In this document: one piece after another, positions 5,056 to 62,757 of the stretch
Layout of the letters: every line of letters starts with the position of its first letter
Numbering within the stretch: the stretch's first letter is position 1
Assembly: GCF_013315695.1 (NCBI RefSeq)
Contig: NZ_CP054353.1
Origin: Escherichia coli
GTDB taxonomy: Bacteria > Pseudomonadota > Gammaproteobacteria > Enterobacterales > Enterobacteriaceae
Reading direction: 5' to 3' (one strand)
DNA length: 64,000 bases
Position numbers and translations under genes: made by a program
The notes under the pieces: model-generated
What the model was told of the DNA's origin: nothing
Seen by the model: only the letters and a program-made list of their open reading frames with translations
Databases searched by the model: none

Positions 5056-5901
5056 ATGTCCACGACATGGTTTGTAGGAGCCGACTGGCTCGCCGAACAT
5101 ATTGATGACCCGGAAATTCAGATTATCGATGCCCGCATGGCGTCGCCTGGACAGGAAGATCGTAACGTTGCTCAGGAGTATCTGAATGGACATATTCCCG
5201 GCGCAGTGTTTTTTGATATCGAAGCGCTTTCTGATCACACTTCCCCGCTTCCGCACATGCTGCCGCGCCCGGAAACGTTCGCCGTGGCGATGCGTGAATT
5301 AGGCGTTAACCAGGATAAGCACCTGATTATCTATGACGAAGGTAATCTTTTCTCAGCCCCACGAGCATGGTGGATGCTGCGCACCTTTGGTGTAGAGAAA
5401 GTGTCGATTCTGGGGGGTGGACTTGCAGGCTGGCAGCGCGATGATCTGCTGTTAGAAGAAGGTGCAGTAGAGCTGCCGGAAGGAGAGTTTAACGCCACGT
5501 TTAATCCTGAAGCCGTGGTGAAAGTCACCGATGTGTTATTGGCAAGCCATGAAAATACGGCGCAAATTATTGATGCCCGCCCGGCTGCACGTTTTAACGC
5601 AGAAGTTGATGAACCTCGCCCAGGTTTACGTCGCGGACATATTCCCGGTGCATTGAACGTTCCGTGGACGGAACTGGTGCGCGAAGGCGAACTAAAAACG
5701 ACCGATGAACTGGATGCGATATTTTTTGGTCGCGGCGTCAGCTATGACAAACCGATTATCGTCAGCTGCGGCTCTGGTGTAACGGCAGCCGTGGTTTTGT
5801 TGGCACTCGCGACACTTGATGTGCCAAACGTGAAACTGTACGACGGCGCATGGAGTGAATGGGGCGCACGAGCAGATTTACCGGTTGAGCCCGTAAAATA
5901 A
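5056..5901 (+). CDS. sseA: 3-mercaptopyruvate sulfurtransferase (rhodanese family), 281 aa
   Basis: Internal ATG at 5056 with GGAG 5 nt upstream; product starts MSTTWFVGADW. The track ORF 4897..5901 is a longer upstream extension. Confidence 0.93.
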   Translation: MSTTWFVGADWLAEHIDDPEIQIIDARMASPGQEDRNVAQEYLNGHIPGAVFFDIEALSDHTSPLPHMLPRPETFAVAMRELGVNQDKHLIIYDEGNLFSAPRAWWMLRTFGVEKVSILGGGLAGWQRDDLLLEEGAVELPEGEFNATFNPEAVVKVTDVLLASHENTAQIIDARPAARFNAEVDEPRPGLRRGHIPGALNVPWTELVREGELKTTDELDAIFFGRGVSYDKPIIVSCGSGVTAAVVLLALATLDVPNVKLYDGAWSEWGARADLPVEPVK

Positions 5902-5916
5902 GCTTTTTACAGGCAA

Positions 5917-5947
5917 TAAAAAACCGCCGAATTTGGCGGTTTTTTAT
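5917..5947 (+). terminator. Intrinsic terminator downstream of sseA
   Basis: GC hairpin CCGCC(gaattt)GGCGG followed by a run of six T. Confidence 0.7.
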
Positions 5948-6005
5948 TGCTGGTCTGGTTCGCGGCCTTTCCAGCAGGTTGTATTACTGCAAGTGTATCT
6001 CGTCT
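5917..6005. repeat. Intergenic repeat module, copy A (terminator hairpin + GGTTCGCGGCCTTTCCAGCAGGTT + GCAAGTGTATCTCGTC)
   Basis: Near-identical about 60-bp segment recurs at 6961-7025, and the 16-mer GCAAGTGTATCTCGTC recurs at 7206-7221. Confidence 0.75.
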
Positions 6006-6028
6006 ACTCAATACTCGCTTTATGCATC

Positions 6029-6037
6029 AACGATGTC
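6029..6037. repeat. IS1 copy 1 target-site duplication, left (AACGATGTC)
   Basis: Identical 9-mer directly flanks the other end of the element at 6806-6814. Confidence 0.9.
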
Positions 6038-6092
6038 GGTGATGCTGCCAACTTACTGATTTAGTGTATGATGGTGTTTTTGAGGTGCTCCA

Positions 6093-6368
6093 GTGGCTTC
6101 TGTTTCTATCAGCTGTCCCTCCTGTTCAGCTACTGACGGGGTGGTGCGTAACGGCAAAAGCACCGCCGGACATCAGCGCTATCTCTGCTCTCACTGCCGT
6201 AAAACATGGCAACTGCAGTTCACTTACACCGCTTCTCAACCCGGTACGCACCAGAAAATCATTGATATGGCCATGAATGGCGTTGGATGCCGGGCAACAG
6301 CCCGCATTATGGGCGTTGGCCTCAACACGATTTTACGTCACTTAAAAAACTCAGGCCGCAGTCGGTAA
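6093..6368 (+). CDS. insA: IS1 InsA (transposition inhibitor / N-terminal part of InsAB' transposase), 91 aa
   Basis: ORF translation [37 protein letters not shown]... matches IS1 InsA as I recall it. Confidence 0.95.
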
Positions 6369-6790
6369 CCTCGCGCATACAGCCGGGCAGTGACGTCATC
6401 GTCTGCGCGGAAATGGACGAACAGTGGGGCTATGTCGGGGCTAAATCGCGCCAGCGCTGGCTGTTTTACGCGTATGACAGGCTCCGGAAGACGGTTGTTG
6501 CGCACGTATTCGGTGAACGCACTATGGCGACGCTGGGGCGTCTTATGAGCCTGCTGTCACCCTTTGACGTGGTGATATGGATGACGGATGGCTGGCCGCT
6601 GTATGAATCCCGCCTGAAGGGAAAGCTGCACGTAATCAGCAAGCGATATACGCAGCGAATTGAGCGGCATAACCTGAATCTGAGGCAGCACCTGGCACGG
6701 CTGGGACGGAAGTCGCTGTCGTTCTCAAAATCGGTGGAGCTGCATGACAAAGTCATCGGGCATTATCTGAACATAAAACACTATCAATAA
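6287..6790 (+). CDS. insB: IS1 InsB reading frame (joined to InsA by -1 frameshift to make the transposase), 167 aa
   Basis: ORF translation [21 protein letters not shown]... matches IS1 InsB. A6C slippery motif at 6344-6350 lies in the insA/insB overlap. Confidence 0.93.
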
Positions 6791-6805
6791 GTTGGAGTCA
6801 TTACC

Positions 6806-6814
6806 AACGATGTC
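6806..6814. repeat. IS1 copy 1 target-site duplication, right (AACGATGTC)
   Basis: Matches 6029-6037 exactly. Confidence 0.9.
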
Positions 6815-6960
6815 AAGTAGATAAAAAAGGATAGATTTTGAATTCATTTGGCTTATCAGTCCGAATTCAGACAAATATAAACAAATCCCGCTTAATATTA
6901 AAATATACTAACTGGTAAAAGATATTACTTAAACGTGTAATTTCACTTTCTTTAAACAAC

Positions 6961-7030
6961 AAAAAACCGCCAAAATCAGGCGGTTATTTGTTGCTGGTTT
7001 GGTTCGCGGCCTTTCCAGCAGGTTCACTTG
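6961..7030. repeat. Intergenic repeat module, copy B (includes a terminator-like hairpin at 6961-6992)
   Basis: AAAAAACCGCCaaaatcaGGCGGTTATTTGTTGCTGGTTTGGTTCGCGGCCTTTCCAGCAGGTT is near-identical to 5917-5980. Confidence 0.75.
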
Positions 7031-7285
7031 TGTTGCATGAACAACGCAGGTGCCTCACAGCAAAAGAATACTCGCTGTTAAGAAATTTTGTGTCAAGTAA
7101 AAAACGAGTAATTATTTTTCGGTTAGCGTATTATTGACACCGACCCTTTCCGCCGTCTCGCAAACGGGCGCTGGCTTTAGGAAAGGATGTTCCTTGGCCG
7201 TAAATGCAAGTGTATCTCGTCGCTTGCTATCGCGGCAATATCGCCAGTGGTGCTGTCGTGATGCGGTCTTCGCATGGACCGCACA

Positions 7286-7411
7286 ATGAAGATACGGTGC
7301 TTTTGTATCGTACTTATTGTTTCTGGTGCGCTGTTAACCGAGGTAAATAATAACCGGAGTCTCTCCGGTAACAATTTATTGGTGGTTAACAACCTTCAGA
7401 ACAGCAGGTAA
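7286..7411 (+). CDS. Hydrophobic small ORF inside ryfA, 41 aa (45 aa from ATG at 7274): MKIRCFCIVLIVSGALLTEVNNNRSLSGNNLLVVNNLQNSR; candidate TimP-like small membrane toxin
   Basis: Open frame translated by hand. One predicted transmembrane helix. Lies within the terminated transcript. Weak ribosome-binding site. Below the 60-aa cutoff of the ORF track. Confidence 0.4.
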   Translation: MKIRCFCIVLIVSGALLTEVNNNRSLSGNNLLVVNNLQNSR

Positions 7412-7417
7412 GCCCGA

Positions 7418-7444
7418 ATGCCGCCCTTTGGGGCGGCATATTTT
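7418..7444 (+). terminator. Intrinsic terminator of the ryfA-like transcript
   Basis: ATGCCGCCC(tttg)GGGCGGCAT followed by ATTTT; overlaps the sseB stop codon on the other strand. Confidence 0.75.
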
Positions 7445-8219
7445 AGATTATCCGGTTCTGTTTAAAGTCACGCAAAAAACCACCCCAGCGACGTTCATAG
7501 AATGGCACAATATGTTCGGTAATAAAGTGGCTAATTCCTTTTTCCCCTTTTTTCACCTGACAAATATCGATGGGTTCATCGCCAGGTATTGTATCGGTCG
7601 CTACACTTCCCGCCGCCTGAATAATTTCTTCGATATCACCATCGGCTTCAATGCCAATAAGTAAATTAGGCTGTGCCTCTTCGTTCTCTTTAATTGAACA
7701 AATAAAAGCACGCTTCACCGGCTTAATAGTTTTAAATAAGGTGGTGAGTGAATCAATCATTTGTGCTGGTGGCTCTGCGACTTCCGATAATATCAGCGAT
7801 TCACCGCCCTCCAGTACTTCCTGGCTGCTCAGCGGATTTCCTTCTTCACCAATCAACAAACTGATTTCACGCGGCATAAATTCTTTACCGGTTGGCAGTT
7901 TGGCATTAAGGAAGAGCGTTTCGCCAAGGGTCATCTCAAACAATGTGCGAACGGGCATTACGACAAATGCCTGTTCGTCTTCAACCGCCTGTTGAAGTGC
8001 TTCTAACGAGGTGAAAAAAGGAATGACGCTGGTGCCGTCTTCTTTTTCCCAGTGCTGTAAATCAAGTGCGCTATCTTCAACCACAGCCTCGCCCTGCGCC
8101 GCCGTACCAGGCACCCAGACGGTGGATTCCAGTAGAGTACGGAAAAAGGCCGGGCGGTGCGCCGGTTCGGTTGCTGCTTTTTCCAGCAGGTCTTCAAGTT
8201 CGTTTTTTATTTCTGACAT
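7443..8219 (-). CDS. sseB: Enhanced serine sensitivity protein SseB, 258 aa
   Basis: Track ORF 7443..8228 begins at a GTG; ATG at 8219 gives MSEIKNELEDLL..., which is the N-terminus I recall. Confidence 0.85.
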   Translation of the reverse strand: MSEIKNELEDLLEKAATEPAHRPAFFRTLLESTVWVPGTAAQGEAVVEDSALDLQHWEKEDGTSVIPFFTSLEALQQAVEDEQAFVVMPVRTLFEMTLGETLFLNAKLPTGKEFMPREISLLIGEEGNPLSSQEVLEGGESLILSEVAEPPAQMIDSLTTLFKTIKPVKRAFICSIKENEEAQPNLLIGIEADGDIEEIIQAAGSVATDTIPGDEPIDICQVKKGEKGISHFITEHIVPFYERRWGGFLRDFKQNRII

Positions 8220-8255
8220 AAGAACCACAATTCATTCAACGTTCGGGGCACAAGT

Positions 8256-8326
8256 GCCTGATGCGCCACGCTTATCAGGCCTACAAGGGAGTCGCAATCT
8301 ATTGGATTTTCGCAATTTGTAGGCCA
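8256..8326. repeat. REP (repetitive extragenic palindrome) element
   Basis: GCCTGATGCGCCACGCTTATCAGGCCTACA followed by TGTAGGCC; typical E. coli REP sequence. Confidence 0.7.
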
Positions 8327-14674: not shown

Positions 14675-14785
14675 TGCTCTATAAACTCCGTACATCACTC
14701 AATGCAAGGAACCAGGCTGCCGGCTGGATGTACGACCGTGTTTACGGAGTGTTTAGCACTCCGGCCTGATTCTGAATTCTTTTTA

Positions 14786-45137: not shown

Positions 45138-45323
45138 ACAACAAAGCCGGGAATTACCCGGCTTTGTTATGGAATAAGGCGGTGCCTAACTCGACGTTTC
45201 GCCCGAGGGTTGATATAGCTACGCTGATATCAGAAGTTGGACGGCAGGCACCTTGTTGTGCGTCATTCGAATTTTATGTAGCACGTCCCGAAGGGGCTGA
45301 CATAAGTCGGTGAATGAGCCACT
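45138..45323 (-). ncRNA. glmY: GlmY small RNA
   Basis: Minus-strand sequence AGTGGCTCATTCACCGACTTATGTCAGCC...AAAGCCGGGTAATTCCCGGCTTTGTTGT matches GlmY as I recall it; terminator hairpin at the 3' end; lies directly upstream of glrK. Confidence 0.85.
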
Positions 45324-54520: not shown

Positions 54521-54595
54521 TGTTGGAATCGTGTGCTGCACAAAATTAAAGTTGTAAAGTGAACCCCCCCGTTCCTTACCAGTTCGGGGGTTTTA
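54521..54595 (+). ncRNA. ohsC: OhsC antitoxin small RNA (boundaries approximate)
   Basis: Promoter TTGTAC-N18-CATAAT; the 19-nt element TTGGAATCGTGTGCTGCAC at 54523-54541 is a direct repeat of 54274-54292 in the shoB leader, giving antisense pairing; intrinsic terminator at 54564-54594. Confidence 0.7.
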
Positions 54596-54619
54596 CTTTA
54601 TAAAGAGAACGGTATTTTT

Positions 54620-56482: not shown

Positions 56483-58095
<1,613 letters not shown>

Positions 58096-58293
58096 TCAGC
58101 ACACGAAACAGACCTGATATACATGGCTCTGCTAACTGCTTCGCTGCAGTTTCAGTTTACCGGTATATGGGGACCAACGCTGTTTCGTGTGCCGTGGCAA
58201 CCTGGAGGTGCCAACCTTAAACTTCGGGGGAATATTCTATACACAACGACGGGGGATGTCGTTAGCCACGGGAGATTTATCTCATAAATAATT

Positions 58294-59327: not shown

Positions 59328-61127
<1,800 letters not shown>

Positions 61128-61324
61128 AAAGTATGATTATTGTGCCTTAATGCCCGGTTAACCAGGCTTTTAGAAGTCGCTGTTCTGAGCTTAACGTCTG
61201 TATTAATAGAAACGCCGCATTCTACACTACAACATTGAGGCGAGGAAATGTTCATACCGTATGGATTGTGGTATCTGGAAACGTCCTCGCATTTGTTATG
61301 CAAAATGCAACAAAGCCAGTGAAA

Positions 61325-61804
61325 TCACTGGCTCGCGTCTTCCGAAGATGTTTCAAATCGCACAAGGCCAGGCGGCAAGGCCACGCTTAAGATGATCGGT
61401 TGCCATTCTGCCCGGGCAGCAAACTTACGCGAGTAGCCACGTGCAATCAGGAATCCACCAACGCCACCGAGAATCGCACCGCATAATGCTGCAATATCTG
61501 AAGCAAAGAGTAGCTGAAATAGTGAAGCGATGAGGAATAGTCCCACCAACGGCGACATATAAACCAGTAATGCGGAGCTAAGCAGGCTGCCTTCGGCGAT
61601 TCCTAATTCTACTTTTTGCCCCGGCACTAACGGTTCATCACAGGGTACGACAATGGTATGCGTAGTTTGCGGGCCAAGTTTATTCAACACGCGGCTACCG
61701 CAACCGGCGCGTGAAGCGCAGCTGCTGCATGAGGCTTTAACATCACAACTAACCAGCGCCTGCCCGTTTTCCCAGGAGACGACGGTAGCCCACTCTTTGA
61801 TCAT
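61325..61804 (-). CDS. rseC: SoxR-reducing system / sigma-E regulatory protein RseC, 159 aa
   Basis: Synteny downstream of rseB; 4-bp overlap. Confidence 0.92.
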   Translation of the reverse strand: MIKEWATVVSWENGQALVSCDVKASCSSCASRAGCGSRVLNKLGPQTTHTIVVPCDEPLVPGQKVELGIAEGSLLSSALLVYMSPLVGLFLIASLFQLLFASDIAALCGAILGGVGGFLIARGYSRKFAARAEWQPIILSVALPPGLVRFETSSEDASQ

Positions 61805-62757
61805 TGCGCTGCCCCGAACTTAATATTCTCGGCAATGCGTTTCGCCGTTTGCGGCGGCAGTTCACCGACAATGGTGATTTCGGCGTTATCACGTACGCTT
61901 GTACTGACGGTTCTGCGTCCGGTGCGCAACATCTGATCGGTGCTCGATGGCGTAGCGCGGTTAACGTTTACCGAAAAGCTGAATAATCCGTCGGAATAGA
62001 GACGTGATTCGATAGGCATGTTGTCCATCGTCGGTAGCGGACGTCGACTACTGGAAACTTCGCTAAAACCCTGTGGCAACCAGGTTGGCGTCCAGCTGAA
62101 TTTAGCTTTTTCACCTACAGGAACAGAAAGCAACGGCGGCAAATTTGCCTTCGCCAGCGTCTGCATACTGCTGCTGATATCCTGATTGACATTAAAAGCA
62201 ATCACGCGAAATTGTTCCAGCGTTTCACCATCGCGATCAAGGAGATCAACCCTCATCGGTAATTTCGATTCGGTGTCCATCCACACGATGTAGCTGTAGC
62301 GTGTACCATCTCGGGCAACCACGCGAATAACTTCGCAAAGACGATCAGCAATACGCGTGCGCCCGACGGAGATAAAGTCGTAGTAAGGAGAAAGGCGTTT
62401 GAAATCGGTATAGATGAGCGATGGCAGAGAATCAACAATGTAATCGCCATTAAGCGTGAACGGTTCAAGTCCCGGTTCAAAATAGCTGATCTCATTGCCG
62501 CGCTGTACCACTTCCCGGCGCGGGCCATCCATTTGCAACAATTGTGCAAGAGGACGGTTATCGAGGCGTGCATGTCGATAACGCAGAGACTCAACACCCT
62601 GTTTATTGATGCTGATGAATGACAGCTCGTAATTCAGTGACTGACTGGCCAGGTTCATCTGCTGTAATAACGCCCCGGACGCGGGAGTGGCCGAGGCGTT
62701 AGCAGAGAATAACAGGCTACCTGTCACTAATGACATGGCAAACCAAAGTTGCTTCAT
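61801..62757 (-). CDS. rseB: Sigma-E regulatory periplasmic protein RseB, 318 aa
   Basis: Signal peptide MKQLWFAMSLVTGSLLFSANASA. Confidence 0.95.
   Translation of the reverse strand: MKQLWFAMSLVTGSLLFSANASATPASGALLQQMNLASQSLNYELSFISINKQGVESLRYRHARLDNRPLAQLLQMDGPRREVVQRGNEISYFEPGLEPFTLNGDYIVDSLPSLIYTDFKRLSPYYDFISVGRTRIADRLCEVIRVVARDGTRYSYIVWMDTESKLPMRVDLLDRDGETLEQFRVIAFNVNQDISSSMQTLAKANLPPLLSVPVGEKAKFSWTPTWLPQGFSEVSSSRRPLPTMDNMPIESRLYSDGLFSFSVNVNRATPSSTDQMLRTGRRTVSTSVRDNAEITIVGELPPQTAKRIAENIKFGAAQ

Follow-up and report, generated by a model that had tools for sequence, protein, structure and literature searches.

A 41-codon ORF in the ryfA RNA of Escherichia coli is very probably timP, with a distal TimR gene as its predicted antitoxin

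A small ORF inside the ryfA RNA of Escherichia coli is very probably timP, the toxin gene of a timPR type I toxin–antitoxin locus between sseA and sseB. It lies in a 64,000-nucleotide stretch of E. coli DNA from contig NZ_CP054353.1, referred to here as the window, for which a preliminary description made from the letters alone had proposed a candidate small membrane toxin. The gene is already known and annotated, and finding the ORF adds nothing new in itself: timP and TimR were reported in 2020 (PMC7667032) and their control mechanism in 2024 (PMC11228461). The sole point that goes beyond this literature is that timP of the window is mismatched with the TimR gene next to it and that an IS1 element sits on the promoter of the other TimR gene, TimR-1. 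We regard this as a modest, testable lead.

The ORF listing of the window holds a 45-aa ATG ORF at 7274..7411 on the plus strand (MDRTMKIRCFCIVLIVSGALLTEVNNNRSLSGNNLLVVNNLQNSR), in the frame and at the coordinates first proposed, and an in-frame internal ATG at 7286 gives a 41-aa form. The full Rfam ryfA model (RF00126, positions 1–296) was matched at 7140..7444 (+), scoring 313 bits (gathering score 80), and the match ends in an intrinsic terminator; the ORF does, then, lie wholly within a terminated ryfA-like RNA, as had been claimed. Its stop codon is 6 nt ahead of the terminator stem, and ATG 7286 falls at about position 147 of the model. A -10-like TATTAT was read upstream at 7129–7134, and we infer a transcription start at ~7141–7142; because the Salmonella timP ORF begins at +145 (PMC7667032), +1 of the window mRNA would fall at ~7142. 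The NCBIfam profile NF040796, "toxic_TimP", scored 84.2 bits with the 41-aa peptide (cutoff 45), aligning residues 1–39 to profile positions 1–39 of 40. In a 100% identical E. coli locus, NZ_OZ547117.1, the RefSeq timP CDS WP_004974226.1 corresponds to 7286..7411 of the window, and the annotated gene order (yfhM, sseA, IS1, timP, sseB, pepB) places timPR between sseA and sseB. Megablast with the region 6791–7460 matched 5425 of 5426 complete E. coli genomes, the timP CDS being present in all matches listed, and at least 1000 contigs carry the exact 41-aa protein under the name TimP; three residues set it apart from the K-12-type protein. Alignment with S. enterica TimP, a check suggested at the outset, gave 51% identity (E = 1e-12). 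The profile match, the identity with Salmonella TimP and the RefSeq timP gene together support the proposal that ryfA encodes a small membrane toxin of the TimP kind.

Table 1. Features of the timPR locus, in positions of the window
Feature	Position	Strand	Details
TimR-1 (distal)	5917..6039	-	adjoins sseA; terminator common to sseA
IS1	6038..6805	+	9-bp target duplication AACGATGTC at 6029-6037 and 6806-6814
TimR-2 (RyfB-like, proximal)	6958..7096	-	~104 nt, predicted TSS ~7061
timP mRNA (formerly sRNA RyfA)	7140..7444	+	~304 nt, RF00126
SL1	7146..7185	+	lower stem 7146-7151/7180-7185, upper stem 7153-7156/7164-7167
Pseudoknot arm 1 CGCTGGC	7169-7175	+	within SL1
SL2	7203..7226	+	stem 7207-7213/7220-7226; predicted TimR target site
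SL3	7229..7262	+	holds pseudoknot arm 2 GCCAGTG, 7243-7249
SL4	7263..7282	+	GCGGTCT/GGACCGC, 7 pairs
Upstream in-frame ATG and three codons (MDRT)	7274..7285	+	45-aa option, probably not the start
timP CDS	7286..7411	+	41 aa, MKIRCFCIVLIVSGALLTEVNNNRSLSGNNLLVVNNLQNSR, stop TAA (7409-7411)
timP intrinsic terminator	7418..7445	+	9-bp stem (7418-7439), 7 GC pairs, then T run

Related loci were collected by a DNA-pattern scan of one genome per species, which gave 32 loci from Escherichia, Salmonella, Citrobacter, Kluyvera, Pseudocitrobacter, Superficieibacter, Yersinia, Rahnella, Rouxiella, Erwinia and Pantoea. The timP 5'UTR of Salmonella folds into four stem-loops, of which SL4 hides the SD; translation depends on a pseudoknot formed by SL3 and the upper part of SL1, and TimR binds SL2 of the pseudoknotted conformer, disrupting the pseudoknot (PMC11228461). 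The window has the same SL1–SL4 layout, with the SD in SL4 and a 7-bp SL1–SL3 pseudoknot. These elements were placed on it via the Rfam structure line, and their pairing was tested on a 26-species alignment. The lower and upper stems of SL1 are paired in 96% and 100% of cells, respectively, with compensatory changes. Over SL1–SL4 as a whole, 95.9% of cells are paired and 9 pairs have changed on both sides, the invariance of SL4 in this species set being partly imposed by the search pattern. All cells of the 7 pseudoknot pairs found in the window are paired (100%) across the 26 species, compensatory changes occur at 4 of the 7, the covariation score is 0.495 compared to 0.251 for shuffled data, and slid controls of the pairing all collapse. 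The SD is a weak GGA (7276–7278), sequestered in the 3' arm of SL4. The ribosome-binding site had been called weak, and as a motif it is; it is not a defect, since an SD sequestered in SL4 belongs to a pseudoknot-dependent design (PMC11228461).

Because SL1–SL4 and the pseudoknot are conserved, the timP mRNA of the window would seem to have everything that the Salmonella mRNA needs for regulated translation. By this mechanism, translation of TimP would normally be very low, with the weak GGA locked in SL4, and initiation would need a minority fold of the mRNA in which 7169–7175 of SL1 and the SL3 loop (7243–7249) form the pseudoknot. The 5' end of a divergent sRNA of ~90–100 nt, TimR/RyfB, would pair with SL2 (7203–7224), breaking the pseudoknot and blocking initiation.

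Whether E. coli makes the peptide had been called uncertain, and the caution was justified. Translation and toxicity of TimP have been shown for Salmonella (PMC7667032); neither is demonstrated for the E. coli or Shigella copy in three studies (PMC8205139, PMC13188913, PMC5333039). Our search of the literature on E. coli ribosome profiling returned no paper tying ryfA to a peptide detected in E. coli. The authors of the APEC study consider that a toxic peptide in E. coli is still to be demonstrated, and they saw a minimal effect of timR deletion (PMC13188913). When Salmonella timP is natively derepressed by deleting timR, it can be translated, but Cpx is induced only mildly (PMC7667032). By analogy, translation, membrane targeting, toxicity and the mechanism of repression in E. 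coli would be those of the Salmonella system.

A possible, if rather doubtful, alternative is that E. coli RyfA is mainly a regulatory RNA whose ORF has little or no part to play under natural conditions. The RNA would affect stress resistance, fimbriae and virulence, partly by titration of TimR, and could be a dual-function RNA or carry a toxin that is becoming vestigial; either is compatible with the gene being timP. In UPEC CFT073, where the ORF was noted, ryfA alleles with the ORF destroyed still complement all phenotypes of the ryfA deletion (PMC8205139). In APEC, the phenotypes of a ryfA deletion vanish in a ryfA timR double mutant, suggesting RNA–RNA interplay (PMC13188913), and a translational fusion in S. 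dysenteriae yielded no product, RyfA being treated as non-coding in that study (PMC5333039). Selection on the peptide within Escherichia points the same way: mean dN/dS of timP is ~0.78, with ~0.5 for codons 1–19 and values above 1 for codons 20–41, on few substitutions and with synonymous sites constrained by RNA structure as well, so protein-level constraint on TimP looks weak within the genus and the C-terminal half unconstrained. The polar tail of Escherichia TimP evolves almost freely, and the N-terminal hydrophobic part is kept. However, the frame, its start and a stop just ahead of the terminator are kept across the bacterial order, with indels in-frame only; the SL4 trap and the pseudoknot are conserved with compensatory changes, which would be hard to explain in an RNA that is not translated; and translation and toxicity are established for the Salmonella orthologue (PMC7667032).

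Given that the gene is timP, its product is most probably the 41-aa form. That it is instead a 45-aa form read from ATG 7274 (MDRTMKIR...), as assumed for CFT073 (PMC8205139) and allowed for in the preliminary description, is very unlikely. This ATG is in frame and is found in Escherichia, Citrobacter and most Yersinia sequences, and a few database entries carry the 45-aa version. However, its equivalent is AAG in Salmonella, Rahnella, Erwinia, Rouxiella and Y. similis, no SD precedes it, and it is placed inside SL4 (loop and 3' arm), overlapping the SD of 7286. Both the NF040796 profile and RefSeq begin at 7286 and omit MDRT, and in Salmonella mutation of the downstream ATG abolishes protein and toxicity (PMC7667032). 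We rejected the 45-aa start on the grounds of conservation and profile, and favor ATG 7286, one of the two starts that had been considered, because 7274 is unconserved and lies inside SL4 on the SD and because the Salmonella protein depends on the downstream ATG.

So short an ORF is not significant alone, and the case for timP being coding therefore rests on homology and conservation. Every complete copy from the scan encodes a peptide of 38–42 aa from the equivalent ATG, with a consensus of MK(I)RYxCIVLxVSGALL and, after it, a polar tail that varies among the Enterobacterales species. A frameshift or stop in closely related strains had been named beforehand as what would speak against the gene; at the level of species, the timP frame is open in all 30 distinct coding sequences from Enterobacterales. 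The other two sense frames are open in 0 and 4 of the 30, and the antisense frames in 13, 11 and 2. Length differences among the 30 sequences are multiples of 3 only, and in the cross-species alignment the third codon position is the most variable. A candidate on the other strand, a 71-aa ORF at 7177..7392 (-), was set aside, since antisense frames over the CDS are open in 2–13 of the 30 species. That the ORF is a chance opening in a structured non-coding RNA, for which one could cite the 31 ORFs of at least 20 aa that overlap 6500..8300, as frames of similar size arise by chance, and the two antisense frames open in 11–13 of the 30 sequences, is exceedingly improbable, being effectively refuted by these cross-species data with their conserved start, stop and MK(I)RYxCIVLxVSGAL motif, by the match to a curated family and by experimental proof in Salmonella (PMC7667032).

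The architecture of one hydrophobic helix and a polar tail, first described by eye, is borne out by hydropathy: residues 5–17 (CFCIVLIVSGALL) have a mean Kyte–Doolittle value of +2.86, compared to -0.83 for the tail (residues 19–41). K2 and R4 precede this hydrophobic segment, giving a Sec-type signal-like N-terminus, which is the best-conserved part of TimP over the 30 species. The Lys/Arg N-terminus and the stretch of ~13 hydrophobic residues would form an uncleaved Sec-type signal-anchor, with a polar tail rich in Asn and Ser. By homology with Salmonella TimP, overproduced TimP would insert in the inner membrane and make it leaky. The locus shares with TimP/TimR of Salmonella enterica serovar Typhimurium the Rfam family, a site adjoining sseB and an ATG at ~+145 (PMC7667032, PMC11228461), as well as the N-terminal signal-like segment MKIRCFC.VL.VSG. 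In contrast to the 38-aa Salmonella protein, TimP of the window has 41 aa, a divergent C-terminal tail and no Ala at the predicted cleavage-site position. The loci differ too: two TimR genes accompany a single timP in E. coli, where an AT-rich 'IS128' filler takes the place of a lost first timP copy; the cognate TimR of the window would be the distal one, with IS1 in its promoter; and no STM2534-like gene was seen.

TisB/IstR-1, ShoB/OhsC and ZorO/OrzO are chromosomal type I pairs with a divergent, trans-acting antisense RNA. Their toxins are small hydrophobic inner-membrane proteins, the antitoxin sRNA gene adjoins the toxin gene rather than lying opposite it, pairing spans ~18–20 nt of the 5'UTR, well ahead of the RBS, and the toxin mRNAs are folded against co-transcriptional translation. 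timPR shares these traits with all three and has no sequence similarity to them. The toxin mRNAs of these three pairs depend on 5' processing and on a ribosome standby site. The timP mRNA is reported to need no processing and to use a pseudoknot-containing conformer instead (PMC11228461). The window itself also holds a match to OhsC, a type I antitoxin RNA, at 54522–54599 (+, Rfam 88 bits). OhsC is the partner of the small toxin ShoB. Further Rfam matches in the window are AsrC (61009–61840), the rnc leader rncO (58011–58225), GlmY (45176–45323) and the iscRS element (14676–14785); like OhsC, all are expected for this region of E. coli.

Genes of the TimR type are present upstream of timP on the minus strand, in line with the antisense sRNA repressor that the preliminary description cited for Salmonella; their function is assigned by homology to that system. 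They were delimited by alignment of four TimR genes, and pairing was assessed by ungapped local scans together with seed-level duplex energies, a whole-strand global fold having given one meaningless full-length duplex. As in Salmonella, TimR is divergent from timP without overlapping it and its 5' end is predicted to pair with SL2, so that the seed shows as a plus-strand direct repeat of SL2. The best pairing of the 5'UTR with the upstream antisense strand falls at -83..-64 from the ATG in ~24 of 30 species; these duplexes are 16–25 nt long and nearly perfect, and their sequence varies between species. The predicted timP–TimR pairing thus has strong covariation support. At a permissive E-value, Rfam assigned the TimR regions to no family and gave weak terminator-like matches only.

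The TimR-2 gene looks fully functional from its signals, with a -35 TTGACA (7096–7091), a 17-nt spacer, a -10 GAGTAT (7073–7068) and a terminator hairpin at 6985–6965. Its pairing with SL2 of the window covers 16 of 20 positions, with 4 mismatches, at -17.0 to -19.6 kcal/mol, against a shuffled-seed background of -14.3 ± 3.1 kcal/mol. This is about background, and we rejected the adjacent TimR-2 as the antitoxin of the window timP. In this respect the window departs from the pairing with the neighboring TimR that most species show. The 5' end of TimR-1 (GACGAGAUACACUUGCA), by contrast, is complementary to timP SL2: a 17-nt perfect repeat links 5988–6004 in TimR-1 to 7205–7221 in SL2, and the duplex energy is -34.5 to -34.8 kcal/mol. 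TimR-1 has a -10 GAGTAT at 6016–6011. A divergent sRNA gene with a terminator and a matching 5' end is thus found in TimR-1, whereas the adjacent TimR-2 fails to match, and by sequence TimR-1 is the predicted cognate antitoxin. An exact-seed search for direct repeats confined to 6800–7450 did not return the TimR-1 partner, which is sited upstream of IS1.

The distal arrangement is not confined to the window. Typing of TimR and SL2 covered 8 Escherichia loci. In the loci with one TimR (O104:H4, O157, SCPM and E1V33), timP pairs with the adjacent TimR at -36 to -44 kcal/mol. A two-copy locus in EC200461 (L038, 700–1900) reads TimR, timP, sseB fragment, TimR, timP, sseB, and the strongest pairing of each timP is with the TimR beside it (-44.5 and -40.9 kcal/mol, compared to -23 and -34 kcal/mol for the cross pairs); because an sseB fragment lies between the copies, the duplicated unit included the start of sseB. 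The K-12-like locus (L002) has two TimR genes (1327–1400 and 1653–1720) and a first ryfA copy truncated after ~25 nt. There the distal TimR-1 pairs with SL2 at -39.4 kcal/mol (20 of 20 pairs including G-U) and the adjacent TimR-2 at -33.7 kcal/mol (18 of 20 pairs). Judged by these pairings, E. coli carries discrete TimR/SL2 specificity classes. The SL2 class of the window is rare, with 38 of 5426 genomes at ≥99% identity, and at least three classes are commoner among these genomes.

A similar organization is known from Shigella dysenteriae, where RyfA1/RyfA2 and RyfB1/RyfB2 occupy the same locus as divergent transcripts of ~100 nt and a short, variable region of the SL2 loop decides which RyfA a given RyfB pairs with (PMC5333039). 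The SL2 and seed classes seen here behave as that variable region does. S. dysenteriae keeps two full ryfA copies, unlike the window with its one ryfA and two ryfB/timR genes.

Several traces of rearrangement were observed in and around these loci. In the window, the Rfam candidate sRNA 'IS128' (6825–7003, +, 166 bits) fills the place of the first ryfA/timP copy, and ends, on its 3' side, in the bidirectional TimR-2 terminator; a weak partial 'IS128' match at 5876–5954 (+) is the equivalent TimR-1/sseA terminator. K-12 (L002, 1440–1490) keeps, ahead of this filler, the promoter and first ~25 nt of the lost ryfA copy, which the window does not have. Outside E. coli, S. enterica subsp. arizonae (L015, 1380–1540) has a deletion of ~160 nt relative to subsp. 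diarizonae, with end-points in two direct repeats, the TimR-seed antisense and timP SL2. The deletion took away both promoters, those of TimR and timP, together with SL1. It looks like a recombinational co-inactivation of toxin and antitoxin. In the multi-species alignment, the same fusion of TimR body to SL2 is seen in C. amalonaticus (L017), Y. similis (L012) and Y. aleksiciae (L034), which brings the total to 4 of 30 species representatives, all with a single ryfA copy at the locus.

The IS1 element next to TimR-1, annotated by RefSeq with an IS1A-family transposase, splits the TimR-1 -35 box and turns TTGACA into CCGACA (6039–6034). Strain 1190 carries the same timPR allele without IS1 and has the TimR-1 -35 TTGACA intact. 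The IS1 junction was found in at least 2 of the 5426 complete E. coli genomes; NZ_OZ547117.1 and NZ_LR898874.1 bear the element. Strain 1190 has an insertion of its own, an IS200/IS605-family element at the TimR-1/sseA terminator (L035, ~1196–1905), whose terminal hairpin replaces the TimR-1 terminator; the sseA–timP spacer seems to be a hot spot for IS elements.

Tentatively, we suggest that the lineage of the window might be a natural antitoxin hypomorph, in which the -35 of the cognate TimR-1 has been hit by IS1 and the intact TimR-2 belongs to another specificity class. The idea comes from TimR-1 having lost the TT of its -35 beside an imperfect -10 GAGTAT and from TimR-2 pairing at background. 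Reduced transcription of TimR-1 would be expected from general knowledge of sigma-70 promoters. If that reduction were large, the native timP mRNA would be translated constitutively.

As a positive control the result is useful: a reading made without tools picked out a real gene, under 50 codons long, in an RNA that had for years been classed as non-coding. For the biology of E. coli, the architecture of the locus bears on whether TimP is ever translated and on its role at native levels. Where a locus combines two TimR genes with a single timP, the cognate sRNA can come from the distal gene, and a deletion of the timR beside timP, such as those published for E. coli, may therefore leave the relevant antitoxin in place. 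If the hypomorph idea is true, the IS1-bearing strain and the IS1-free strain 1190 would form an isogenic-like pair in which the native function of E. coli TimP could be addressed.
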